Assembly (NCBI GenBank): GCA_014905635.1
Contig: CM026547.1
Location: 3,658,001 to 3,722,000 of the forward strand
DNA length: 64,000 nucleotides
Origin: Scenedesmus sp. PABB004
Lineage: Eukaryota
Reading direction: 5' to 3'
Each line of letters opens with the position of its first letter. Position 1 is the first letter of the stretch. Position numbers and translations under genes: made by a program. This document shows, in pieces, positions 19,071-64,000 of the stretch. A model generated the notes under the pieces. It was given only the letters and a program-made list of their open reading frames with translations, made no database searches and was not told where the DNA came from.

Positions 19071-19700
19071 CGCGGAGGACCCCAGGCAGCTGGGGCTGGG
19101 CGGGCTGGCGGGCGGGTTGAGGGGGCAGCCAGGCCAAGGAGTCAAGCAGGCATCAGCCGCCGCCCAGCGGCGGTGTCGTGTGTACTTGAGCCATCTAGCA
19201 GGTGTGTGTCTACCGTCAGCAGCAGCAGCAGGTGGCGACAGCGGCAGCTGTACAGACGCTAGCGTCTGTAGACAGCGCACCGAGGCTCGCAGGGGGGTTC
19301 CGAGGCGCGGCGCGCGCGCGGGTGGCTTGAGCGCCCGCGGCGCGGGCTGCCGGCCTCTGGGTAGCCTGCGTTGTTGGCGGCGTGCGTGTACGTGTCACTC
19401 TTCGCGCGCCGTCGGCCGCCCGCTCAGCCGCTCGTGACTCCTCGGCCGCCGCCGTCGCCGCTCGTCCACGCGCAGCCAGCGGAGCCGCCACTCCAGCGCC
19501 TCCGCCGAACTCGCCACGCACGACCACACAGCGCACCCCTGCGCTCGCACTCCCGAGCAGCAGCAGCGCGTCGCCTGATCGCACGCCAGCAGCAGCGGCG
19601 GCTCTGCCCGAGCTCGCACCGCGAAAGCGCGCCTCTGCGCTCACCGACGAGCAGCAGCGCGTCCCTGATCGCGTCTGACGCAGCAGCAGCGGCAGCAGCC

Positions 19701-25643: not shown

Positions 25644-25677
25644 GCGCGTCCCGCGGCGCGCGCGCCGCGGGACGCGC
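25644..25677. repeat. Perfect 34-bp palindrome
   Basis: GCGCGTCCCGCGGCGCG|CGCGCCGCGGGACGCGC, checked base by base. It ends just before the start of the duplicated segment at 25679. Confidence 0.9.
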
Positions 25678-25678
25678 A

Positions 25679-26984
25679 GCGCGCGGCGGCCGGATCGGCG
25701 CCCCCCGCCGCGCCGCGAGCGCCGGCCGGCGTGCGGGCGCGATGCGCGCGTGGCGCCGCGCGCGGACGCCCCGGCGCCGGCCGCCGGCGGCGGGGGCGGT
25801 GGCCCGGCACGTGCGTCGCCCGGGCGGGATCGGGGCGCGCCCGTGCCCGCCCGGGGCGCCCGCGCGGGCGCGGCGCATGTCGGGGCCGCCTCCCGCCGCC
25901 GTGGGCCGCCCGCGCCGCGCGTGCGGCCGCCCAGGCGCCGCGCTGACGCGTCCCGCGCCGCCACGGGCGGCAGCGCAGGCGCCCGGGCCGCCACGCGCGG
26001 GGCGCCGCACGCACGAGACGCGCCACCACCCGCCCGCGCGTCCCGCGGGCCCCACCTGCCGTCTCCTCGCTGCGCGGGCTGCCGGACGAAGCGGTCATGC
26101 CGGGCCGGCGGCGGCGCGCGCCCGGCGCATGCGCGGGCGGGCGTGGGCTGTGAGCGGCCGGCCTCCTGGCCTGGGGCGGCCCGCGGCGCGCTGGCGGGGC
26201 CTGCCGGGGCGTCGCGTCGCGCAAGCTGCGCCGACTGGCGCGCGCGCGGGCCGGGGCGGCGCTCGCACGCGCAGGCGCGGCGGGCTGTTAAGCAGAGAAC
26301 CCCGCGCGCGCCCGCCAGCCCGCGCGCCGCGCCGCCACGCGGCCGCGGCGGCCGCCGGCACCGCGCACGCTCGCGCACAGCGCGCCGGGCGGGCGGCGCC
26401 GGCGCCGGCGCGCGGGGGGACCGGGGGTCACCTGACCGCCCCCCGGGCCAGCGGCGCCCAGCGCGCGTGCGTGCGTGGCTTCCGGGGTGCTCCACGCACG
26501 CGCAGCGGGCAGCGCCTGCGATCTGGCCGGTCGTCGCTGACGCGGCCGCGCGGACTCTCTTTTGCTTTTGTTGCGACGACCGCGTTCGCGTCCCGCGACC
26601 GGCAGGTGCCGCTCACGCAGCGCGCTGGTCGCGGCGCCGCCGCCGCCAGCCGGCGCCGCCGCGCAGCGGGGCCGCTGCGCGTCGGCCGCTGGCACGCCGG
26701 CGCGCGGCGGCACGCCCACACCAGTGAGCACCAGCAGCAGCTCTCACGCCACGTCACAGACCCGTGGTGCTGCTCGTGCTCGCCGCCGCGACGCCGCCCG
26801 GCCGGTGCTGGTGCCAGCCTGGGCGCGCGTGCTGCTCCTGCTGCGTGCTCTCCCGCCGCGGCGCGCGGGGCACGCCGCCGTCCAGCGTCATCGGAGCCGC
26901 GTCCGGCGCCGCCGCTGCGAGCGTGAGCACCTCACCCGGCGCCACGCCCCGCAGCCCGGGGAACGCCGCTGCGCTGGGGGCGTC
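25679..26984. repeat. Direct segmental duplication, copy 1 (about 1.3 kb)
   Basis: Near-identical to 34129-35436. About 4 differences seen by eye (2 substitutions, 2 single-base indels). Confidence 0.95.
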
Positions 26985-27253
26985 TCAGCCGCCGCCCTCG
27001 TGCCGCTCCGGCAGCGCCTCCAGCAGCAGCGCCTGCTGCTGCCCGGCGGCAAAGCCCGCGCCCGCCAGCGTCTCCCCGCCGCCGTCGCTGCCGCCGGGCG
27101 GCAGCACGCGGCGGGGGAACTGCTGGACCAGCGCGTACGTGCCCGGCCACAAGCCGCCGGCGCCCTGCGCGCGGCGCGGCGCGGCAGCAGAGGCGTCGGC
27201 GGCGCGCGGCAGGCCGCCGCGCCCCCGCGGCGCCCTCGCGGCCGTGGGCTCGG

Positions 27254-33959: not shown

Positions 33960-34128
33960 CGTCACGGCCCGCTGCGGCGCGGGCGGCTGTGCGTCGACCG
34001 GCGCGGTGGTGCTCGCGGCGCGCTCGCCGAGGACTGCGGGCGTGCGTGGCAGGCGGGCGGCGCGGCGTGGGCGACGCGCCGCGGGCGCCGGCGTGGGGGA
34101 CGCAGCTTCAAATCGAAGCCCCGTCGCC

Positions 34129-35436
34129 GCGCGCGGCGGCCGGATCGGCGCCCCCCGCCGCGCCGCGAGCGCCGGCCGGCGTGCGGGCGCGATGCGCGCG
34201 TGGCGCCGCGCGCGGACGCCCCGGCGCCGGCCGCCGGCGGCGGGGGCGGTGGCCCGGCACGTGCGTCGCCCGGGCGGGATCGGGGGCGCGCCCGTGCCCG
34301 CCCGGGGCGCCCGCGCGGGCGCGGCGCATGTCGGGGCCGCCTCCCGCCGCCGTGGGCCGCCCGCGCCGCGCGTGCGGCCGCCCAGGCGCCGCGCTGACGC
34401 GTCCCGCGCCGCCACGGGCGGCGGCGCAGGCGCCCGGGCCGCCACGCGCGGGGCGCCGCGCGCACGAGACGCGCCACCACCCGCCCGCGCGTCCCGCGGG
34501 CCCCACCTGCCGTCTCCTCGCTGCGCGGGCTGCCGGACGAAGCGGTCATGCCGGGCCGGCGGCGGCGCGCGCCCGGCGCATGCGCGGGCGGGCGTGGGCT
34601 GTGAGCGGCCGGCCTCCTGGCCTGGGGCGGCCCGCGGCGCGCTGGCGGGGCCTGCCGGGGCGTCGCGTCGCGCAAGCTGCGCCGACTGGCGCGCGCGCGG
34701 GCCGGGGCGGCGCTCGCACGCGCAGGCGCGGCGGGCTGTTAAGCAGAGAACCCCGCGCGCGCCCGCCAGCCCGCGCGCCGCGCCGCCACGCGGCCGCGGC
34801 GGCCGCCGGCACCGCGCACGCTCGCGCACAGCGCGCCGGGCGGGCGGCGCCGGCGCCGGCGCGCGGGGGGACCGGGGGTCACCTGACCGCCCCCCGGGCC
34901 CAGCGGCGCCCAGCGCGCGTGCGTGCGTGGCTTCCGGGGTGCTCCACGCACGCGCAGCGGGCAGCGCCTGCGATCTGGCCGGTCGTCGCTGACGCGGCCG
35001 CGCGGACTCTCTTTTGCTTTTGTTGCGACGACCGCGTTCGCGTCCCGCGACCGGCAGGTGCCGCTCACGCAGCGCGCTGGTCGCGGCGCCGCCGCCGCCA
35101 GCCGGCGCCGCCGCGCAGCGGGGCCGCTGCGCGTCGGCCGCTGGCACGCCGGCGCGCGGCGGCACGCCCACACCAGTGAGCACCAGCAGCAGCTCTCACG
35201 CCACGTCACAGACCCGTGGTGCTGCTCGTGCTCGCCGCCGCGACGCCGCCCGGCCGGTGCTGGTGCCAGCCTGGGCGCGCGTGCTGCTCCTGCTGCGTGC
35301 TCTCCCGCCGCGGCGCGCGGGGCACGCCGCCGTCCAGCGTCATCGGAGCCGCGTCCGGCGCCGCCGCTGCGAGCGTGAGCACCTCACCCGGCGCCACGCC
35401 CCGCAGCCCGGGGAACGCCGCTGCGCTGGGGGCGTC
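34129..35436. repeat. Direct segmental duplication, copy 2 (probable source copy)
   Basis: Matches 25679-26984. Here it is continuous with the terminal coding exon of the MBL-fold gene. Confidence 0.95.
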
Positions 35437-36475
35437 GCAAGCAGCGCCGTAGCCGTACACGCACAGTTGTGCGCCGCCAAACAGCCCCGACGCGGCTGCG
35501 GCGGAGCGGGCAGGGCGCGCGGGGCGCCCCGCGGCGGCGCGTCATCAGCATGCACGCGCACACGCCCGGGGCGGCACAGCGGCGGCAGCGGAGCGCGGCG
35601 CCGCGCGCGCGCGCGCTGCCGGCGTCGTCCGGCGCACCCACCTGCTGCCGCGAGCTGCGCAAATCCGGCGTGCTCCGAGCTCGCCCCGGGTCGGCCGTCA
35701 AGCAGCAGCAGCGGCGCGGCGGCCAGGGACGCATAGAGCCTCGCGTCGTAGCCGCTGTCGCCCGACCACCCCAGCACGGGCGCGCCGCGCCAGAACAGCA
35801 GCAGGCCGAAGCAGCGCTCCGCGTGCCGCGCGCGCAGCGGCAGCAGGCCGAGGCCGCCCCCCAGGTCGTGCAGCTGCCCCGCCGCGCAGGGCGTGAGCGC
35901 GGCAAAGGCGTCGAGCGGCCGGCCTGCGCGCGGCGGCGGCGGCGAGGTGCGCGCGTGCGGCGGCGTGCGCGCGCGCGGCGGCCGCAGAGCGCGCGCCGCG
36001 CCTGTGCTCGCCAGCTCGGCGAGGCGGTGTGTCGTGAGCGTCCGCAGCACGCCCGGCTCGGCCAGGACCTTGAGGCGCCGGCCCCGCTGGCTCTCGACCG
36101 CGAGTACAACAGGGAGCTCGCCGGCGTGGTCTGTGTGGTTGTGGCTGACATAGATGGCAGGCGCGACCTCGGCGGCGCCCGTCGCCCGCGTCGCACGCGT
36201 CGCGCCCAGGCCCTGCGGCACGTGCCGCGGCGCGGTCGGCGCGTGCCGCGGCGCGTGCGGCGCGTCGGCCGCGGCGGCAGCGCCGCAGCGGCGCCGCTGG
36301 CGGCTGCGCAGCTGCCCCTGCCGTGGCGAGGCTGGCGCACCAGGTCGAGCTGGAGCAGCGGGCGCCCCCCGTGGAGCAGCAGGAACGCGCTGGAGCAGCT
36401 CGCGCCGCCGCTGCCGTCGCCGTAGACTGCGGTCGCCCCTGCTCCCACGCCGAGAACCACCAGCTCCAGTGCCAT
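35206..36475 (-). CDS. Metallo-beta-lactamase-fold hydrolase (RNase Z/phosphodiesterase-like), about 4 exons
   Basis: LVVLGVGAG, LQLDL|GLG, YVSHNHTDHAGEL (HxHxDH), ARHAERCFG, GWSGDSG, SSEHA. The 3' end is inferred. Confidence 0.8.
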
Positions 36476-47617: not shown

Positions 47618-50600
47618 TCACTCCCACGCGACGGGCACGTCGAGCGCGCTCACGGCGATGGTGCCCTTGACGCCCACGGCCTTGCCGTCGGCCGTGATCG
47701 CGCTCACCAGCGAGCTGCTGCCGGGCGCGCCGGCGGCCTCGGCGGGCAGCTCCGCGCGCGCGACGCCGTCGGCGCCGGTCACCGCGCGCACGGTCGCGGA
47801 CGGCGCGCCGTCCGCAGAGGCGCTGACGGCAAACTCCACCTCGGCGCCGGCCACGGGCTCGCCCGCGCGCATGAAGGTCGCGGCCACGGGCAGCGGCGCG
47901 CCCGCGGGCGCGGAGGGCGGCGCGGCCACGGACAGCGCGTCGACGCTGCCGGCGGCGACGACCGCGGCGGGCGAGGCGCCGCCGCCGCTGAAGGGGCTCG
48001 CCATGGCCAGGGCGGCGAGGGACTTGGTGCCAGGGACGCACATCCAGAAATAGGGATTGTCGCGCTTGCAGATGGTGCCAGCCGCGCAGCACGAGCCCTG
48101 CGCCGCGGCGTGCGCGCGCGGTGGCGAGGTGAGTGCTCGCCGGCGGCCAGGCGGGCGGGCGGGCGGCGGCTGCGGCGGAGCCCGGCGGCGGCGGCGGGGG
48201 CGGCTCACCGCCCAGGGCGCGTCGGTGCACGAGCCGCCAGGGCAAGCGGGGTCGATGCCGCCGCACTTCTGCCACGCGGCCACGGGCTTGCAGCCGCCGC
48301 CGCCTCCGCCGCCGCCGTTGGACGGGGGCGACGGGGTGGGCGCGGGCGCGGGGGTGGGAGGGGGTTGGGCGCGGGGGTGGGCGCGGGGTTGGGCGCGTTG
48401 CCGCCGCCGCCGCACGCGGAGAGCGCGCCCTGGCGAGCAAACTGGACGAGGCCCGCCGCGGCGCCGGTGAAGCCAGCGTTGTAGTCAAACGCGACCTCGC
48501 TCTGCCGGTAGTCGTTGCGGATGTCGGGGTAGTTGTCCGACTGGTCGGGCCCGCCCACGAGCCCGCCGCGCAGCACGATCTGCGCCGGGTGGCTGGCCAT
48601 GAAGTTGGACTCGTCGCAGCAGCCGCCGGGGCCAGTGCCTGCGCGTGCGTGCGGGGTTGTGCGTGCGAGGTCGTGTGAGCGAGCCGTGTGAACGAGCTGT
48701 GGTGGACGCCGCGGCGTGTTGGTCAGCGCAGCGGCTGCTGCGCGCGGCGCCAGGCTCACCCTGCTCGCCGGCGCAGCAGGTGCCGCCGTTGAAGGGCGTG
48801 CACGGCTCGCTGTACTTGGCGGAGCACGCGCTCTGCCTGTGGTGGGGGCGCTGGGGCTGGTTGGGGCCGTAGCCGATGAGGAAGGACCTGCCCGTGGACG
48901 CGCCGGTGATGACGCGCATCTGGGACCGCACCCAGCAGATGTGGGCCTGGCGGCTGTCGCCGTACTTGCCCATGAGCGCAGCAATGAACATCATGTTGCC
49001 TACCACCAGGCGGGCAGGGCAGGGCAGTCACGCGGGCGGGGTCAGCGCGTGAGTGACGTGGGGAGCAGGGCTGGGCGCCAGCTGCAGCTGTGCGTCGCAC
49101 GCGGCCGCGGCGGCGCGCACCGTTGTTGCGCAGCGTGCCCCAGTCGCTGTAGTAAGCCATGCCCTTGGGCGTGTAGCACACGGTGGAGTAGGAGGGCGCA
49201 GGGCACTTGTTGTTGACGTCCTGCGGGGAGGGCGGGGAGCGACGACGGCCGGCGGGGAGGCTTGTCAGGGTGCCGGTCGCACTGGGCGACACTCGTCGGC
49301 CGACCGGCCAGCGTTCAGTCTGCAGCGGCGGCGGCGCACCTCCCACTTGGCCAGGATGTAGCCCTCCAGGTAGGTCTTGGCCGCGGCGGCCTGGGGCAGG
49401 CCCAGGCTGACCGCGAGCGCGGCGGCGCCGGGCATGACGCTGTCCCAGTCGTAGCCGAGGCCGTAGCGGAGGTTGTTGACGCCCATGGCGGTGTCAAACC
49501 ACTTGCTCGCGCTGGGGCAGGCCGAGGCATCATACTTGCACATCCAGCCCGCCGCCCAGGCGAGGTGCGCGATGTAGCCGTCGGGCCAGTACGACGCGTA
49601 CGCCTGGAACACGCCCGGCGGCACCTTCCAGCTGCGGCCGCGGCGGGCGCGGCGGGCGCGGCGCGGTCGGGGCACGCCGGGCGGCGGGGCGCGGCCGCTG
49701 GCCCGGCGCGCGGGCTGTGCGCGTGCTCACGTGTTGGGGTGCGCCTCGGCAAAGGCGAAGGCCTGCTTGGCGTGCTTGTACAGCGTCGCGGCGTACGCGC
49801 CGCGGCCGACGCTCTTGAAGAGCACCGCGGCGGCCGCGTACGCGGCGGCAAACTCGCCGACCAGGTCGGCGCCGCCGGTGGTCGTGTCGGCGATGTAGAC
49901 TGGCCGCGCGTTGGTCGCGTGCTCGGGGCGGCCAAAGTACTGGTGGTCGTTCTTGCCGGACAGCTACGGCCGGGAGCGACGCGTGCGCGCGGCGCCGCGG
50001 CGGGCGGGCGGCGTTGAGCCGCCGGCGGCGCGGCTGCGGCGCGGCCGGCGGCCCGGACCAGCCCGGCACACGGCGCGGCGCGCGCGGCGCCAGCGCGTGC
50101 GTGCGCGGCCGGCGGCGCGGCGCACCTGGCCGACGAACACGTTGGCGGCGGGGTCGTCCGACGCGGTGATGTGTGCCTTGATGAGCCAGTCAGCAGCCCA
50201 CTCGATGTCGCGCAGCGCGATGTCCCACTGCCCCGCCGCCTCGTACGCGGAGCGGAACTCCAGCATGGAGAAGACCAAGTTGGCCGTGCCCCAGGCCAGC
50301 GGGTGGGAGATCTTCAGGTAGTCTGCGGCGGCGGCACAGCGGGGCGTGGGATGAGCACACACGCGGGGTGAGTGAGGTCATGCGCACGCATGCTGGCCAG
50401 CTGACGGCCAGCGGCGTGCGCGCAGCCGGCGGCTCAAGCGCGCGCACCGCCGGCGTCGTAGTAGCCGCCGGAGAGGTCCTTGCCGATGTCCTTGCCGTCG
50501 TCGAGGTGCGCGGGCTTCTTCCAGCCGCCCGGCTTGCTGTAGAGCAGCTGGTTCCACGCCGGCAGCACGCCGCTCATCTGGCCCTCGTAGAACGTGTAGG

Positions 50601-50949
50601 ACATGCCCAGGATCGAGGCGTAGTCGTCCTCCTGCGCGGCGCTCAGCCGCACGGCCTGCGGCGGCGGCCGAGCAGCGGCGGTGGCCGCACGCGGGTGAGG
50701 CGGCGGCGCGCGTCTGCGGCGCGCGGCGCGCGAGCAGGAGGTGCAGGGGCCCGGAACAACGCGTAGATCCGCGCGTGCGTGGGGGCTGTACCGCAGCCGG
50801 CGCGCGGGGGCGGCCGCTTCCCGCGCAGCGAGTCGTTGCGGCCCGCCCGACCAGCGCCGCAGCTGGCCCCGCAGTGCGCAAACGAATGCGCTCAGTCTCA
50901 CCGATACACACAGCACCAGCAGCGCCAGTGCGCTCGCGCGCGGCGCCAT
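47618..50949 (-). CDS. Secreted GH9 endoglucanase, copy A (GH9 + Pro/Thr linker + CBM1-like + Ig-like domain)
   Basis: Signal peptide; DLSGGYYDAG|DYLK; PQRPHHRQS; GGLVGGPD..YPDIRNDYRQSEVAFDYNAG. CBM1-like WQKCGG...C...NPYFWMCVP. Confidence 0.93.
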
Positions 50950-54825: not shown

Positions 54826-55179
54826 GCTGAGGCGGGGCGGCGGCGCGACCGCGACGCGCCGCCTGGCCGGGGGCCCTGGGGATGAAGGGGGGGGGGGCGA
54901 TCTGGCGCCACGACTGCACTGCGCTGCGCTGTTGCGACGGCACTGCTCTGCCACGGGGTGCGGAGGAAGGGGAGGTGCGGCAGCGCCTAAAACTGGTTTG
55001 CCGCGTTGGCCGCCTCTCAAGCTGAAAAAAATTGGTTTGGGAGGGGGGGAGGCGTGTGGAGGATGCCTGACCTGGTTTTGGACATCACCCCCGCGTTTGG
55101 TCTGCGCGCGTCATCGCAACATAATACAGCCAGTGTGCGGCGGAACGGGGACGTTGCGGTCGAACATGTGTGGGTTGGG

Positions 55180-55590
55180 GTGGGTGTGGGGCGGTGGGAG
55201 GCTCGGCTCAGCCCGCTGGCGGCACAACTCTCACAGTGGCGGCAACTCTCGCGTGAAGATTGGCATGCATTGGCGGCAACCTGTGGGGGTGTGGGTGTGG
55301 GGCGGTGGGAGGCTCGGCTCAGCCCGCTGGCGGCACAACTCTCACAGTGGCGGCAACTCTCGCGTGAAGATTGGCATGCATTGGCGGCAACCTGTGGGGG
55401 TGTGGGTGTGGGGCGGTGGGAGGCTCGGCTCAGCCCGCTGGCGGCACAACTCTCACAGTGGCGGCAACTCTCGCGTGAAGATTGGCATGCATTGGCGGCA
55501 ACCTGTGGGGGTGTGGGTGTGGGGCGGTGGGAGGCTCGGCTCAGCCCGCTGGCGGCACAACTCTCACAGTGGCGGCAAATCTCGCGTGAA
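55180..55590. repeat. Tandem repeat, 111-bp unit, about 3.7 near-identical copies
   Basis: TGGGTGTGGGGCGGTGGGAG recurs at 55181, 55292, 55403 and 55514. Confidence 0.95.
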
Positions 55591-56047: not shown

Positions 56048-59033
56048 TCACTGCAGCAAGACGACGCGCGCGGCCCCGGACCGCAGCGCGACGCTGCCCT
56101 TGACTCCCAGCGCGCGCGCGTCAGGCGTCAGCGCAGTGACCCCCAGCTCGCCGCCGCCGGCCGCCGCTGCGGCGACCGCGCTTGCTGGCAGCGTCGCCGC
56201 GGCCCGGCCGGCGGCGTCGGTGACGGCTGATAGCTCCACGCGCGGCGAGCCGGCCCCCGCGGCGGCGCCCACCGCAAACACCACCGCCGCGCCCGGTACG
56301 GGCGCCCCGCCGCGCGTCAGCACGGCGGCCAGCTCCAGCGGCGCGCTGGCCGGGGCGGCGGCGGGCGCGACCAGCTCCAGCGCATCCAGCGCGGCAGCGG
56401 CCAACGCGACGCCGGCGCCCGCGGCGATCGCGGCCCGTCGGCGGCAGCGGCCGGTGCGGCGCGCGAGGCGGGCACGCACGCCCACCACCAGGCGTTGTCA
56501 CGGCGGCAGACGCTCCCGGACGCGCAGCAGAAGCCCTTCCACGCTGCGTCGGCGCACCCGCCCGCCACTCCGGGGCAGGCGTCGTCCTGGCCGCCGCACT
56601 TTTGCCACGCCTGGACGGTCTTGCAGCCGCCGCCGCCTCCGCTGGGCGGGGGGCTGGGCGCCGGCGCGGGTGGCGGCGTTGGGGACGGGGACGGCGGTCG
56701 CACGATGACGCCTGCGCGCGCCGAGTGCAGCATGTCAGGTGCGGGAGCACGGCCGCGGCTGCCGGGATCTCCGTGCGGCCGCCTGGCCCCGCGGCGCGCA
56801 CACGCACTCGGGCCGCCGCAGTCGCTGAGCTTCACGCCGTCCGCGGCAAACTGGACGAGGCCCGCCGCGGCGCCGGTGAAGCCAGCGTTGTAGTCAAACG
56901 CGACCTCGCTCTGCCGGTAGTCGTTGCGGATGTCGGGGTAGTTGTCCGACTGGTCGGGCCCGCCCACGAGCCCGCCGCGCAGCACGATCTGCGCCGGGTG
57001 GCTGGCCATGAAGTTGGACTCGTCGCAGCAGCCGCCGGGGCCAGTGCCTGCGCGTGCGTGCGGGGTTGTGCGTGCGAGGTCGTGTGAGCGAGCCGTGTGA
57101 ACGAGCTGTGGTGGACGCCGCGGCGTGTTGGTCAGCGCAGCGGCTGCTGCGCGCGGCGCCAGGCTCACCCTGCTCGCCGGCGCAGCAGGTGCCGCCGTTG
57201 AAGGGCGTGCACGGCTCGCTGTACTTGGCGGAGCACGCGCTCTGCCTGTGGTGGGGGCGCTGGGGCTGGTTGGGGCCGTAGCCGATGAGGAAGGACCTGC
57301 CCGTGGACGCGCCGGTGATGACGCGCATCTGGGACCGCACCCAGCAGATGTGGGCCTGGCGGCTGTCGCCGTACTTGCCCATGAGCGCAGCAATGAACAT
57401 CATGTTGCCTACCACCAGGCGGGCAGGGCAGGGCAGTCACGCGGGCGGGGTCAGCGCGTGAGTGACGTGGGGAGCAGGGCTGGGCGCCAGCTGCAGCTGT
57501 GCGTCGCACGCGGCCGCGGCGGCGCGCACCGTTGTTGCGCAGCGTGCCCCAGTCGCTGTAGTAAGCCATGCCCTTGGGCGTGTAGCACACGGTGGAGTAG
57601 GAGGGCGCAGGGCACTTGTTGTTGACGTCCTGCGGGGAGGGCGGGGAGCGACGACGGCCGGCGGGGAGGCTTGTCAGGGTGCCGGTCGCACTGGGCGACA
57701 CTCGTCGGCCGACCGGCCAGCGTTCAGTCTGCAGCGGCGGCGGCGCACCTCCCACTTGGCCAGGATGTAGCCCTCCAGGTAGGTCTTGGCCGCGGCGGCC
57801 TGGGGCAGGCCCAGGCTGACCGCGAGCGCGGCGGCGCCGGGCATGACGCTGTCCCAGTCGTAGCCGAGGCTGTAACGTATGTTGTTGGTCGCCATCGCGG
57901 TCCCGAACCAGCGCCCCGCCGTGCTGCACTGCGTGCTGCTGTACCGGCACATCCAGGCGGCTGCCCACGCCATGTGCGCGATGTGGCCGTCGGGCCAGTA
58001 GGTGGTGTAAGCCTGGAACACGCCGTCTGGCGTCTTCCAGCTGCGGCGGCAGCGGCGGCGGCGGCGGCGGCGGGTGTGCTCTTGCGCAGCGTGCGCAGCA
58101 CCACATGCTCGCCCGCACATGCAGCCGTGGCGCGCGCCGCGCGCACTTGCTGGGGTGCGCCTCGGCAAAGGCGAAGGCCTGCCGCGCGCGCCGGTACAGG
58201 CGCGCGGCGTAGCGGGTGTCGTTGGCCTGCCGGAACAGCACCGCGCCGGCCGCAAACGCGGCCGCATACTCCGCGGCCAGGTCGGCGCCGCCGGTCGCGG
58301 CATTGGCGACGTACGTGGGCCGCGCGTTGGTCGCGTGCTCAGGGCGGCCAAAGTATGAGTGGTCTACCTTATCCGCCAGCTGCGCAGGGGGGGGGGGGGG
58401 AGCGGCGCGCGGGGCGCGTGGGCCTCGGGGCCGCGCCCTACGCGGTGCGCGCGCGCCCCTCGGGCCGCGCCTGGCCGACAAACACGTTGGCCGCGGGGTC
58501 GTCCGACGCGGTGAGGTGGGCCTTGAGCAGCCACGCGGTCGCCCAGCGCACGTTGCGCAGGCCGACGGCCCACGCGCCCGCCGCCTCGTACGCGGAGCGG
58601 AACTCCAGCATGCCCAGCACCAGGTTGGCGGTGCCCCAGGCCAGCGGGTGAGGGATCTTCAGATAGTCTGCAGCGGCACAACGCCCGGTTTGAGGTGAGC
58701 GCATGCTGGCCAGCTGACAGCCAGTGCGGCGCGTGCGCGCAGCTGACGCCCGCGGCTCGCGCGCGCGCGCGCACCGCCGGCGTCGTAGTAGCCGCCGGAG
58801 AGGTCCTTGCCGATGTCCTTGCCGTCGTCGAGGTGCGCGGGCTTCTTCCAGCCGCCCGGCTTGCTGTAGAGCAGCTGGTTCCACGCCGGCAGCGCGCCGC
58901 TCATCTGGCCCTCGTAAAAATTCCAGCTCAGGCGCAGCAGGCGGGCGTGGTCGTCTTCCGCTGCGCGGACCACGGCGCCTGCGGCGGCGAGCGCCAGCAG
59001 CAGCGCGGCCGCCGAGGCGCGGCGGTGGCCCAT
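56048..59033 (-). CDS. Secreted GH9 endoglucanase, copy B (GH9 + linker + CBM1-like + Ig-like; frameshift before the Ig-like domain)
   Basis: MGHRRASAAALLLALAAAGAVVRA signal peptide and the same catalytic motifs as copy A. CBM1-like WQKCGG...DNAWWWACVP. The Ig-like domain is in another frame after about 56435. Confidence 0.9.
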
Positions 59034-60493
59034 GCCTCCGCACAGTACACGTTGGGTGTCGTGCAGCTGTGACGGTGCCGCCGGAGCCGCGCGCGGGCTG
59101 GGCGCGGCCGCACGAGTCGCGCGGCAGGCTCGACGAGCCCGGGCCAGCTGCCCCGACTTTCGCAGCCGGCGGGCGATCGAGGCGCTGGGCGCGAAGCAAT
59201 CGCGTGGATGCAGACTGTCGCTTTGGCGGTGCGGCGGGCGGATTGCGTTGGAGGCACTCGGCGCCGCCGCTTTGCACGCGGCGGTCGTCACTCTCGGCAA
59301 CTTCCGGCCGCTGCCCCTGGTGCTGCTGCCCCCGCCGAGCGACTGAGTGCCGCCGCGGTGGCGAGCGCGCGTGGGCCGGCTGGCGGGCGCGGGGGTGTGC
59401 GGGGTGCGGGGGTCTGTTGCGTTGACCGGCCTGCACTGCGTGGGCGCGCGCGCGCCCACGTGCACGCGGAGGCTGCAGCAGTGCGCCGAGCTGGCGCGCG
59501 AACCACAAACACTCGAAGTGACTTGACCGCCTCTCTGGGCGCACAAGGGGGACGGGGACGGAGGGGACACACTCGCGAGCGCATCGCGAGCGGATCGGAG
59601 CGGCGCGCAGTGTGCCGCGCGGCATGTGAACGCACTGCACTGATGTTCTCAGCGGCGGAGGGCGACGGGCGCGGTGGGGGCGTCACACTCGAGAACACAG
59701 CCCGCCCGCCGCCGCCTCCCTCGTCGTCACGCCCTTGCCGCCAGGATGCCGGCGACGCCGATGCCGACCGCCGTGCTGATGAACGCGCCCGCCACTGCGA
59801 TCGCCACGCCCGTGCCGGCGAGGCCCCCGACATCGCCGTCGCCGCCCGCCGCGCCGGCGCGCGTTCGCGCCGCGAGCAGCGCCTCCACAAACGCGACGCT
59901 GCCGGCCCGCAGCGCGTCCTTGCCGCCGGAGTCGATGACGCTGCCGTGCGCCAGCACCACGCGGTCAAACTCCCACCGCGCCAGCAGGTCGTCAAAGCAC
60001 GCCTTGAGCGCGCCTGCGCGGCGGTTGCGCGGCGTGCTCGGCCAGTGGGCCCCTCGCACGCGGCAGGGCCCTGCCCAGCCCGCAGCGCACGAGGACGGCC
60101 GCCGCCGCCGCGCCTGTCCGGTGCCGCCCAACCCGGCCGCGGCCCCCGGGCGGGCAGGTCACCTGGGTCTGTGATCAGCCACCGGAACGGCCGCGCCACG
60201 CAGCAGCGCCGCCGCCCGCCCGCGGCGGCGAGGTACGCGGCCAGCAGCGGCCCCGGCGGGCACGCCGCGGCGCTGGGGGCGTCGAGGTTGAACGCCAGGT
60301 CGGTCAGCAGCAGGCTGCGCGAGGGCCGGTGCAGCAGCGCGAGCTCGTCCAGCGTGTCGCAGCCCTGCATCTGCGCGGCGGCGGCGCGCGCGCGGGGCGG
60401 GCGCGCCGCCGTGTCGGCGCGCGCCGGCGGCGGTGCGCGCCGCCGCCGCGGCGCCGGCTGGCGCGCACCGGCAGCAGGTCCAAGCCCCGCGCC

Positions 60494-61427
60494 CTAGCCG
60501 CGCGCCGCCGGCGGCCGCCAAGGGCACCTTCACCGCCGCCAAGGGCAACAAGAACGGCCTGCGCGTCGACTTTGCCAAGTGGGACATGCGCGTCGGCGTG
60601 CAGACCTTCAAGACGCAGGACGACGCGGACAAGGCCGCCGCCGCCGGCCACAAGGCCATGAAGGCCAAGATCGGCGAGCTCTTCAAGGGCCGCGAGCGTG
60701 AGTGCGCCGGCCGCGCGGGGACGGGACGCCCCAGGGCGAGCGAGCGAGGGGCGGCCGGGGCGGCGGCGCGGGCAGCGTCGGCCGCGCGGCGCGCACTGCC
60801 CCCCCACCCCCGACCACGCCTCTGGCGCTGCGCGGGGCACGCGCCGACGCTGCCCGCGCCGCGCCGCGGCTTGGCGAGCATCGGGCGCGGCCCTGCCTTG
60901 ACTGCTCGCCGCCGCCCGCGGCGCTGCCCGCCGCCTTGCCCCGCCGCCGCCCCGCAGTGTCGCTGGCAGAGAAGGAGGACGCGCTGGCCGCGGCCCGGAC
61001 GGCCGCGCTGGCCGTGCGCAACGCGGCGGCCGGCGGGGGCGCCGGCGAGGGCGCCGGCGAGAGCGAGGCGCCGGCCAAGGGCAAGCGCGGGCGCGGCAAG
61101 GCGGCACCCGCCAAGGAGGGCGCGGCGCCGGCCAAGAAGCGCAAGTGAGCAGCAGGCAGCGGCTGGCGGCTGGCGGCGGCGGGGCCCGCAGCCGGACCTG
61201 GCCGCTGCCAGCAGCGCCGCCCCAGGCCCCGCGCCCGGCAGCAAGGTCGGCGGGGCGGGCGAGGGCTGCAGGCGGGCGGGGTGGACCATGCACAGCGGCG
61301 TGGGTGTGCAGCTGCACAGATCGTGCGTAAACCCTCGGCTCGGCGCGAGCCAAAGTAACGCGCTGCCTCGGCCCCCAGCGCTCTCTCAGCGCTCTCCCAG
61401 ACTGGGCGGCGCCGCCCAGACCTCTAG
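60494..61427 (+). mobile_element. CTAG-bounded inserted segment with a captured two-exon gene fragment (Helitron-like 3' end, unproven)
   Basis: CTAG at 60494-60497 and 61424-61427 coincide with both DUF4336 breakpoints. An 18-bp palindrome (61402-61419) lies just before the right CTAG. No transposase is present. Confidence 0.45.
60502..61148 (+). pseudogene. Start-less fragment of a small Lys/Ala-rich nuclear protein gene (2 exons)
   Basis: APPAAAKGTFTAAKGNKNGLRVDFAKWDMRVGVQTFKTQDDADKAAAAGHKAMKAKIGELFKGRE|LSLAEKED...PAKKRK*. Strongly biased codon usage and a GTGAG..CAG intron. No upstream in-frame ATG. Confidence 0.65.
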
Positions 61428-62295
61428 AGGTGGTGCAGCTGGCGGCGCGGCGGCGGCGGCGGCGGGCGAGGTACGTCAGCTGCGCGCTGCGGCCAGGCGC
61501 GCGCTGCGCGCTGCGGTGGGCTGCGCTGGCGCGCAGCAGCGCGGGGCTGGGCGGTGGACCTTGTTGGGCGCGACGATGAAGCACACGTCGCCGCGCGTGG
61601 CCAGCCAGGACAGCACGCCGGGCGTGGGGCCAAGCGGCGAGACCACGACCAGGCCCGTGCCGTGCGCCGCGCCGGGGAGCGGGTAGCCGGCGACGACCAT
61701 GCGCACCTGGCGTGTGTGGTGGTGGTGGTGGTGGTGGTGGTGGTGGTGGTGGTGGGGGTGGTGGTGGCTGGCTGGCCGCCGCGGGCGGGCGGCGAGTGCG
61801 CGGCACCACAGCGGCGCGGCGCCACCAGCAACGACGCCAGCAGCGGTGCGCGCTCCTCACCGGCATCCGCGCCAGGCCCAGAGCCCACGTGAGCGACCCG
61901 TCCCAGCACCAGAGCAGCTCGCCGCTGTCGCCGAGCTGCACCGGCGCCGGCGCCAGCCGCAGCGACATGGCGGCGAGGGCGCAGCGGCGGGCGCGGCGGC
62001 GGGCGCGGAGCTCAGTTCACCGAGCCGAGCGACGCCGCCATGTTCTCCTGGCCTAGCGGCTCCCACTGAGATGACGGGGCGCGATCGAGCTGCGGCCTGC
62101 TGCCAGGACGAGCGGCGGCAGCGGCAGCGGCAGCAGCGGCGGCGCGCGGAGCGGGACCACGATCGCGGTTGCGGCAGTGGCCCCTCAAGCTCTCCCGGCG
62201 ACCACCCCGTTCACTGGGCCACTGCGCGCCGCCGCAGCCCACCGCCGCTGCGCCCCGCCGCGCCCCGCCGCTGCGCCCTCGCGGCCGCCACATCG

Positions 62296-62600
62296 TCACG
62301 ACTCCAGGAGCTCGCGCAGCCCGGGGATCACCTCGCCCAGGGCCGCCTCGACGCCGGCGTCGCGCCAGCGCAGCGTCTTGATCGCCCAGACCACCTTTGC
62401 CGCCGCCTCGGTGTCGGACTCGAGGCTGAGCGTGCGCGCCGGCAGCACCTGCGGCGGCGCGGCGGCCGCGGCGGCCCTCGGCGCCCCGCCGCCGCGGGCC
62501 GGGCGTCGCGCTCGCGCCGCGCGCGCCCACCACCCACCTGCGCCACGGCGGCCAGCAGCGCGTCGTCGCGCAGGCCCAGGCTGCCCCCGCCGGTACCGCG
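62296..62600 (-). pseudogene. Orphan 3' gene fragment (2 exons, helical-repeat/OPR-like)
   Basis: SLGLRDDALLAAVAQ|VLPARTLSLESDTEAAAKVVWAIKTLRWRDAGVEAALGEVIPGLRELLES*, joined by a GT-AG intron. An in-frame TAA lies upstream and there is no ATG. Confidence 0.45.
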
Positions 62601-62674
62601 CTCGCACGGACCTCCAGCTCTGCGTTACCGCGGCGCGCCTCCCGCGCACGCGCACGCGCACGTGCGCCGCGCGC

Positions 62675-64000
62675 TCAGCTCGCCGCGGCGTTGAGCTCAA
62701 ACCACTGCCGCAGCAGGTCGGCGAGCGTCGCCGGCAGGGCCGCGATGTCGCGCAGCACGATGTAGTAGGGGAAGGGGAAGGTGTCGAGGTAGCGCTCAAA
62801 CACGGGCTTGCCGCCGACAAACTTGACGCTCTGCATGTCGAGCAGCGACGACGACCCGCCGCTGCCGCCGCGCGCGCGCCGCCGCCGCCGGCAGCGGCGG
62901 CGGCCGGGCCAGAGGGGCCCCCGCCGCCGCCGCCGCCGCCGCCGGGCGCGCTGCCGCCGGGCGCGCTGCCGCTGGGCGCGGCGTCGAGGGCAATGAAGAC
63001 GGGGCACACGCCCTGCGCCTCCACGAGCCGCCGCACGCCGCCGAGCAGGGCCTCCTTCTCGTGGAAGCGGCCGTCGCCGAGGACGAGCAGCAGCTGCCGC
63101 AGCTCGCCGCCGCCGCCGGCGCCCGCGCCCGCCGACGCACGCGCGCGCGCGGCCTCCAGCATCGCCTGCGCCGCGTCGACGAGCTGCAGCATCGGGCGGT
63201 CGGTGATGGTGTTGTCCTGGTCGAAGCGCAGCGCGGCCATGATGCCCGCGCCCGCGGCGTCGCTGAACGGCGCGTCGAGCGGCAGCAGCGGCGACACGCC
63301 GCCGCCGCCGCCGTATGCGAGCACGCCGAGCTCGCCGACCTCGAGCCGGCTCATCGCCTTGCACAGCAGCGCGAGCGCCTCGAGCGCAAACACGCCCGCG
63401 CGCGTCTCGGCCATGCTGCGGCTGTCGTCGACCGCCAGCAGCACCTGGTAGCGCCGCTTGTCGGGCCGCGCGCGGCGCATCCAGATCTTGTCGCGCCTGA
63501 ACTGGCTCGCGATGTAGCCAATCACGCGCCGCATGTTGAGCCGCTTGCCGCTGCGGAACTCGCCGCCGAGGCGGCTCGCGAGGCTCGGCTCCAGCAGCAG
63601 GCGCAGCTGCTCGCTCAGCTCGCCGGCCAGGCCCGACACGAGCGCGTCGCAGCGCGCCCACATGTCGCGCCCGTACGACGCGGCGGCGCCGCCGTCGCCG
63701 CCGTCGCCGCCGGCGCCCGCCGCCGCCGCGGCGTCGCGCAGCCGCGCGTCGAGGTCGGCGCGCAGCGCCTCGGCCGCCTCTGCCGGCATCTCCCTCGCCA
63801 GCAGCGCCGCGGCGTCGCCCTCGAGCCCCGCCGCGTCGTCGTCGTCGGCCAGCTGCGTGGCCGCCAGCCGCGCCGCAACCAGGCTGGGCAGCTCGCCCGC
63901 GTCGGCGGCGGCCGCGCCGCCCGCCGCCGCCGCGCCCTGCTCCAGCAGCTGCTGCCGCTGCGCCGCCTCGGCAGACGCGGCGTCCTCGGCCGGCTCGCCG
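62675..64000 (-). CDS. MDN1: Midasin/Rea1 C-terminal VWA (MIDAS) domain, 5' truncated by the window end
   Basis: LSEQLRLLLEP...GEFRSGKRLNMRRVIGYIASQFRRDKIWMRR..PDKRRYQVLLAVDDSRSM and YLDTFPFPYYIVLRDIAALPATLADLLRQWFE. Frame change near 62870. Confidence 0.95.
   Translation of the reverse strand, partial: RRAGRGRRVCRGGAAAAAAGAGRGGGGRRGRRRRGRAAQPGCGAAGGHAAGRRRRRGGARGRRRGAAGEGDAGRGGRGAARRPRRAAARRRGGGGRRRRRRRRRRRRVVRARHVGALRRARVGPGRRAERAAAPAAGAEPREPPRRRVPQRQAAQHAARDWLHREPVQARQDLDAPRAARQAALPGAAGGRRQPQHGRDARGRVCARGARAAVQGDEPARGRRARRARIRRRRRRVAAAAARRAVQRRRGRGHHGRAALRPGQHHHRPPDAAARRRGAGDAGGRARACVGGRGRRRRRRAAAAAARPRRRPLPREGGPARRRAAARGGAGRVPRLHCPRRRAQRQRARRQRARRRRRRRRGPLWPGRRRCRRRRRARGGSGGSSSLLDMQSVKFVGGKPVFERYLDTFPFPYYIVLRDIAALPATLADLLRQWFELNAAAS

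Follow-up and report, generated by a model that had tools for sequence, protein, structure and literature searches.

How does a piece of one gene come to lie, in opposite orientation, in the middle of another? The question is raised by a stretch of 64,000 nucleotides (the window, G000:C1:3658001-3722000) from a eukaryotic genome assembly, G000, of 40 Mb in 80 contigs. One protein of this genome bears a source label of the green-algal genus Scenedesmus. The genes of the window have GT-AG introns, and its GC content runs at ~70-83% along its length (79% overall). CTAG is scarce in it, with 15 sites against 67.8 expected, and two such sites 930 bp apart were therefore worth a look. A preliminary description took these two sites as the ends of a hairpin-terminated insert in a DUF4336 gene, and offered either an atypical rolling-circle-like capture element or a templated break repair as the cause. 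We think it likely that the locus is a nested product of double-strand-break repair, in which ectopic DNA was captured and the joins were sealed with templated filler, and that it is not a transposon. The structure itself is very probably real.

A search of the same genome with window positions 59650-62050 is informative about what was there before. It brings up an uninterrupted copy of the host gene on contig C25 (G000:C25), 99% identical, and it is in this form, on another contig, that the intact version which the preliminary description proposed to look for was found. Measured against it, 153 bp, or 51 codons, are lost from the middle of the exon LHHLFAAPWK...SAALDLLP, where about 40 codons had first been estimated, and 943 bp (60483-61425) stand in their place. 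The reading frame, on the minus strand, does stop at LHHL-TAG as first read; it restarts at DLLP and not at ARGLDLLP, since the ARG belongs to the cargo. The name of the host gene survives as a tentative one: a single exon of the five C25 exons scanned, each taken singly, matches DUF4336 (PF14234), with E=0.012 and 15.2 bits against a cut-off of 28.5. A search of the assembly for the family gave a match only at a different gene, on C13, and searches with the host exons gave no annotated full-length protein. The copy on C1 is a truncated pseudogene, and was probably tolerated because the C25 copy stays uninterrupted. Relative to the window (59823-59825 and 62339), the C25 coding exons carry homopolymer deletions of 2 nt and 1 nt; the window frames look intact, and the deletions may be polishing errors or real frameshifts.

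Table 1. Features of the interrupted locus, in window coordinates
Feature	Position	Strand	Remark
Left copy of 13-bp target-site duplication	59325-59337		13-mer occurs in the window only at 59325 and 62580
Extra A, outer left junction	59338	+	Absent from both the target repeat and the C25 donor
Left arm	59339-60482	-	Copy of G000:C25:94187-95329; 99.0% over 1145 nt, 8 substitutions, 2 indels
Extra A, true inner left breakpoint	60483	+	In neither the arm nor the cargo alignment
Cargo part 1, 3′ piece of orphan gene X	60484-61020	+	93% to G000:C13:952475-953014
Cargo part 2, basic C-terminal tail and shortened 3′ UTR	61021-61385	+	Related to RCC1-repeat gene, G000:C22:208198 onwards
Right junction filler	61386-61425		T and second CAGCGCTCTC (CC), AGA, 18-bp palindrome 61402-61419, ACCTCT
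Right arm	61426-62582	-	Copy of G000:C25:92866-94033; 98.5% over 1169 nt, 5 substitutions, 2 indels
Right copy of 13-bp target-site duplication	62580-62592		3 nt at its start shared with the C25 donor (microhomology)

Judging by the alignment, the interrupted gene is itself not native to C1. It sits in a 3.24-kb block (59339-62582) that is an intron-bearing copy of 2.46 kb of C25 (C25:92866-95329). From the DUF4336-like gene, the left arm has the 3′ flank and the 3′ exons with their introns; the right arm has the 5′ exons, with the ATG at 61968, and reaches across the intergenic region into the final exons of the gene upstream on C25. All introns are retained. On C1, the block lies between what we take, from the translations, to be a GH9-like gene on the left and a midasin-like gene on the right, and a Pfam scan of one exon of each gave no match. 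The block is flanked by the 13-bp target-site duplication, and a flanking repeat of at least 10 bp was found for 12 of 20,000 random intervals of 3.24 kb. The arms diverge from C25 to a similar extent, together by 13 substitutions in ~2300 bp (0.6%), which fits one recent duplication. Both left junctions, outer and inner, carry one additional A. There are no terminal inverted repeats at the ends of the block or of the cargo (9 of 30 positions match in each case), and no A or T run or poly(A) is found close to the block ends.

A target-site duplication could also be left by a LINE or Penelope-like enzyme that had copied an unspliced read-through transcript, an RNA-mediated route that we consider very unlikely here. 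In its favor, the length of the duplication varies, being 13 bp at this locus and ~21 bp at a locus on C13 considered below, and Chlamydomonas non-LTR elements are described as making duplications of variable length, with long ones from Dualen LINEs (PMC9977147). The gene fragment copied on C13 also lacks exactly one GC-AG intron of its donor. However, an intron gained later, or a deletion at microhomology, could account for that difference, and at the present locus the block keeps all introns of two genes as well as intergenic DNA, has no poly(A), and holds a cargo in the opposite orientation.

The claim that both breakpoints fall on CTAG did not survive alignment. The left break is between 60482 and 60483, 11 bp ahead of the CTAG at 60494-60497, which is internal to the C13-like cargo (the alignment runs from 60484) and reflects a single C>T difference from C13 at position -3 of an intron acceptor, CAG having become TAG. 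The right break is between 61425 and 61426; here, CT comes from the insert and AG from the host, being present in C25, although an end of the insert's own that overlaps the host by 2 nt is conceivable. In C25, CTAG is found neither within nor beside the replaced stretch. The 12-bp GC palindrome at 60504-60515 is present as described, but it is cargo coding sequence rather than a special left end. It differs from C13 by one base, and is unremarkable because the window, at its high GC content, holds 220 perfect palindromes of at least 12 bp and 24 of at least 18 bp, with overlapping centers counted. The z-score for folding is +0.13 at the left end and -1.59 at the right. A CTAG-bounded element was thus dismissed by the alignments with C25 and C13, and a restriction or ligation chimera at CTAG is ruled out, as C25 has no CTAG at either break. 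Elsewhere in the window, a 20-bp, AT-richer perfect palindrome (19251-19270) is centered on another CTAG and is possibly a comparable repair scar.

The right end is as the preliminary description had it, with the 18-bp palindrome preceded by two copies of CAGCGCTCTC, at 61376-61385 and 61387-61396. The order at this join is the donor end, a 10-nt direct repeat of the donor end, the palindrome, and a mirror of the host end, ACCTCT, which is the exact reverse complement of the first 6 host bases. The junction is therefore a short direct repeat followed by two back-to-back zero-loop palindromes. Zero-loop palindromes of 12 bp are centered at 220 of 63,988 window positions, and the chance, from composition, for the letters of ACCTCT is 7e-5. 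For the 27-nt filler, we found no convincing distant template; the longest matches, of 8 to 9 nt, are at chance level for 79% GC. The 18-mer palindrome has three genomic sites, and those at C4:227144 and C4:293542 were dismissed as sibling elements because their flanks are unrelated.

Break repair would be expected to leave joins of this kind. They are abrupt, with 0 to 3 nt of microhomology, the donor copy is unlinked and retains its introns, and the junction insertion repeats both of the break ends, the host's as a 6-nt mirror and the donor's as a 10-nt direct repeat. The alignment with C25, the repeats in the filler, and the kept introns all support the templated break repair that had been offered as one of two options. 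We imagine that a staggered break occurred on C1, that its overhang was filled in, and that C25 DNA was captured and end-joined there, giving the 13-bp duplication. A second break, or a template switch in a single event, would account for the loss of 153 bp and its patching with a fragment of a chimeric donor in the opposite orientation. Synthesis of the polymerase-theta type (SD-MMEJ), with rounds of loop-out and snap-back, could have made the junction repeats and palindromes, with the right CTAG as a by-product of snap-back filler synthesis. The palindromes would have arisen at the join itself, since a donor contig in a public run, X5, runs on without them. The simplest account would take two rounds of repair, or a single one in which the template was switched.

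In SD-MMEJ as described, loop-out or snap-back synthesis makes the insertion part of new direct or inverted repeats (PMC5728401), and templated insertions in Chlamydomonas have been ascribed to POLQ (PMC8495919). The insertion here resembles those in its new repeats by the break and in a filler of ~27 to 40 nt, near the 3 to 30 bp quoted in the second of these reports (PMC5728401; PMC8495919). Unlike those insertions, its palindromes are loopless, and a role for polymerase theta is one that we propose. Zero-loop palindromes can also be obtained by hairpin opening. Weighing against break repair are the want of a distant filler template, the missing donor, the lack of any contig across a junction in the runs aligned, and the fact that palindromes of at least 18 bp are common, with 24 in the window.

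Comparable captures are on record. Genes in Oryza are described as moving mainly through break repair (PMC3615480), and in a Chlamydomonas polQ mutant a Cas9 break took up 85 bp of another gene, so that capture need not be POLQ dependent (PMC8495919). The present locus shares with the non-collinear genes of Oryza and the Chlamydomonas fragment the copying of intron-bearing DNA to an unlinked site through joins of little or no homology, and also, from what those reports describe, a target duplication of short length, a loss of host DNA at the site, and the lack of element termini (PMC3615480, PMC8495919). It differs from them in that the patch is nested within a duplicate and that the cargo is an older chimera with its direct donor missing from the assembly.

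Could the insert instead have arrived as a unit, ending in a hairpin and CTAG, through a Helitron-like, Replitron-like, or other transposase-driven capture element? We regard this as unlikely. Canonical Helitrons are described as starting with TC, ending in a hairpin and CTRR, and inserting at A^T, whereas members of a second group (HLE2) carry short terminal inverted repeats and target T^T (PMC11417382). The locus is like both groups, as they are presented there, in carrying a gene fragment as DNA and in having a palindrome close to CTAG (PMC11417382), which here is found at one end and with a motif as rare in the window as CTAG. The cargo is also unexpectedly well represented in environmental runs. 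Yet the insert starts with AGCC (AGAG on the other strand) and not TC, it is flanked by A on either side on the + strand and not by A^T or T^T, and 153 bp of the host are gone. With the left CTAG internal and the right one half host, no CTRR of its own follows the 3′ hairpin, and the X5 donor contig continues without hairpin or CTAG. Short terminal inverted repeats, as for HLE2 or Pack-type elements, are absent (the 9 of 30 noted above). The termini are single-copy, with no other match in G000 over either end, and this is a finding that the preliminary description had itself named as telling against its rolling-circle-like capture element, along with which the two CTAGs as termini have fallen. 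When G000 was searched for Rep-Hel genes, Helitron_like_N (PF14214) gave no candidates, although the control was silent too, and PF05970 gave one PIF1 locus, an exon-by-exon search of this sort being a weak one.

With Replitrons, the locus has the green-algal setting in common, and Replitron-1 is described as giving variable target duplications and fuzzy right ends (PMC10288648). In contrast to Replitrons, no short direct terminal repeats are seen on inspection at the ends of the insert, which has no sibling copies; the word "capture" is absent from the main text on these elements (PMC10288648). A duplication by itself does not set the locus apart, as variable target-site duplications and extra end sequence are reported for Chlamydomonas Helitron families as well as Replitron-1 (PMC10288648), and given the variable duplications of Helitrons, Replitrons, and LINEs (PMC10288648, PMC9977147), a transposase- or retro-mediated origin keeps some probability. 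The cargo, a chimera from several loci beside a target duplication, is also of a kind with Pack-MULE-type elements. Those elements carry chimeric gene fragments from several loci and make a target duplication of ~10 bp; unlike them, the insert has no terminal inverted repeats and is present in single copy.

As to the cargo, it was right to describe it as antisense to the host, with its intron retained and its start codon absent, and the kept introns also support its capture as DNA. Its first part, the 3′ piece of gene X, consists of an intron remnant with a TAG acceptor (60495-60497), an exon (60498-60697), an intron of 260 nt (60698-60957), and the last exon, from 60958. The second part joins it in frame at about 61021 and runs to a stop at 61146-61148; BLAST pieces align it with C22 at 72-85%, with several long internal gaps, and the C22 gene matches RCC1 families in Pfam. 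The gene X exon has two copies in G000, in the C1 cargo and in the C13 paralog. By the divergence of its parts, the joining of gene X to the tail and UTR of an RCC1 gene long predates the duplication with its 0.6% of changes, which makes the cargo a chimera of greater age; it follows that the direct donor is neither C13 nor C22.

Gene X itself is an orphan. It has no Pfam family at E<=1, and its relatives among longer proteins are limited to the C13 paralog. A weak PPR-like match among 50% representatives was judged to be chance, two loci in JGI metagenomes were spurious and of low complexity, and a match on C8 to the intron of the cargo (75%) was put down to GC-rich background. Viral contigs gave no relatives, and the Atlas gave nothing usable except a possible AP2 (PF00847) connection through a cluster with 53% AP2 members, at rank 15 and with a score of 0.80, a level that shuffled proteins often reach. 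A single-sequence structure model has a pLDDT of 57. The AP2-like look is only a lead. Between window positions 60499-60696 and L011:4491-4691, with one extra C13 codon set aside, 11 of 11 differing codons are non-synonymous, and at several of these differences K or R in the window copy corresponds to neutral residues in the C13 copy. Environmental copies of gene X are of the window type.

G000 yielded no direct donor for the cargo, so that the search for an intact donor gene and sibling elements, as first suggested, ends with an absent donor and single-copy termini. Public sequencing runs offer a further view. Six were listed, each with a small word share (0.06-0.15) and picked using the window stretch, and none of them is an RNA run, so the set carries no information on expression. 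Four of the six were aligned to window positions 57500-64000 at 85% likeness, and all four have pieces of the cargo at ~99%. Three of these (X1, X2, and X4) are freshwater metagenomes from two studies in which the cargo exon is nearly unchanged: X1 covers 60495-60778 with 2 differing letters and a 4-nt gap (depth 2.8), X2 covers 60489-60737 with 2 differing letters (depth 15.8), and X4 covers 60595-60734 with none (depth 8.7). Among the matches listed, pieces of the flanking genes in X1, X2, and X4 are shorter than 60 nt and have several mismatches, and X2 has no long flanking-gene piece.

The fourth run, X5, from organism A, has one contig (depth 3.8) that matches 61267-61385 with one difference (99%) and goes on with 33 other letters. 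This continuation begins with CC, like the second copy of CAGCGCTCTC, and has no palindrome or CTAG. Another X5 contig has a 28-nt exact match to G000 at a C4 paralog, which places organism A in the same species or very near it, and organism A is perhaps not independent of G000. X5 was considered as a spliced RNA run, but in the genome, too, the intron in question is absent from the matching C4 paralog, and the idea was given up. The continuation has no match in G000 at 2 or fewer mismatches and none in viral contigs. A shorter core of it has three one-mismatch matches in G000; two, taken at first as terminal inverted repeats, are arms of an 872-bp inverted duplication, and the third falls in coding-like sequence. 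We infer that a direct donor exists in the lineage, without the hairpin end and absent from this assembly. It may be multi-copy, contig depth being a poor measure of copy number.

The same runs bear on whether the locus is an assembly chimera, a long-read or ligation artefact joining sequences of C25, C13, and C22, which strikes us as highly improbable. Such an artefact would be consistent with the lack of a contig bridging either junction in 4 of 4 runs aligned, with a right end that reads TCTAGA, and with the homopolymer deletions of 1 to 2 nt in C25, which mean that the assembly may carry polishing errors. The runs, however, hardly cover the flanks, so that neither the missing bridges nor the absence of the empty-site joint from all 4 runs counts as evidence. 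Against an artefact, there are 13 substitutions between the arms and C25 and a difference of ~7% between the cargo and C13, which makes them distinct sequences rather than re-used reads. A 13-bp duplication, together with C25 sequence that continues on both sides minus 153 bp, is hard to get by mis-joining, C25 has no CTAG at either break, and the cargo pieces are ~99% alike to independent environmental contigs.

The more interesting question is the identity of the missing donor. One can envision, as a tentative reading that we would not expect to hold, that the cargo derives from a mobile or extrachromosomal element of the algal lineage, multi-copy and so far undescribed, from which the break was patched, perhaps with DNA from another cell. 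Such an element would carry an orphan, lysine-rich, possibly AP2-like gene with an acquired RCC1 3′ end (basic tail and UTR), and would be plentiful in freshwater populations in the wild, whereas this strain would lack it or have it unassembled. This is suggested by the ~99% cargo pieces in three metagenomes (X2 at depth 15.8), by the X5 continuation unmatched in G000, and by the lack of a long, near-identical flanking-gene piece among the matches listed. If true, the donor would be an element new for algae, and might show that breaks in nature can incorporate the DNA of other strains.

If break repair is the right explanation, as seems likely, the locus is a clear natural chlorophyte example of gene-fragment movement by that route. 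It would also mean that snap-back filler can mimic a Helitron end, with a palindrome and CTAG, and that structure-based Helitron finders could miscall it. Two other rearrangements were counted for break repair as similar events. The first is on C13 (L011:2515-3388, ~950500-951400), where a 0.83-kb partial copy of a PLP-enzyme (threonine-dehydratase-like) gene lies upstream of gene X, with its donor gene 3 kb downstream, a flanking direct repeat of ~21 bp, and the other introns kept. The second is a recent 1.3-kb duplication within the window (25675-26987 and 34125-35439; 99.5%, two genome copies), which has no flanking direct repeat; the left junction of its first copy adjoins the longest palindrome in the window, 34 bp at 25644-25677. 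As three or four rearrangements of this kind came from reading only a few loci, duplication through break repair may be a main source of gene shuffling in this genome.

Several further features of the genome are of note. The public annotation of the C13 locus merges four genes or fragments into one protein of 1201 aa (P0003). On C1, the 872-bp inverted duplication (L039:2507-5373, 1927.5-1930.4 kb), which can be added to the similar events above, is 98.4% alike, with arms ~1.1 kb apart. Within the window, 48437-50688 and 56846-59012 are tandem paralogs (pieces at 89% and 78%), presumably glycoside-hydrolase-9-like, and a further paralog on C4 lacks one intron. A short tandem array at 55169-55590 has a unit of ~112 bp, with copies 95-99% alike.
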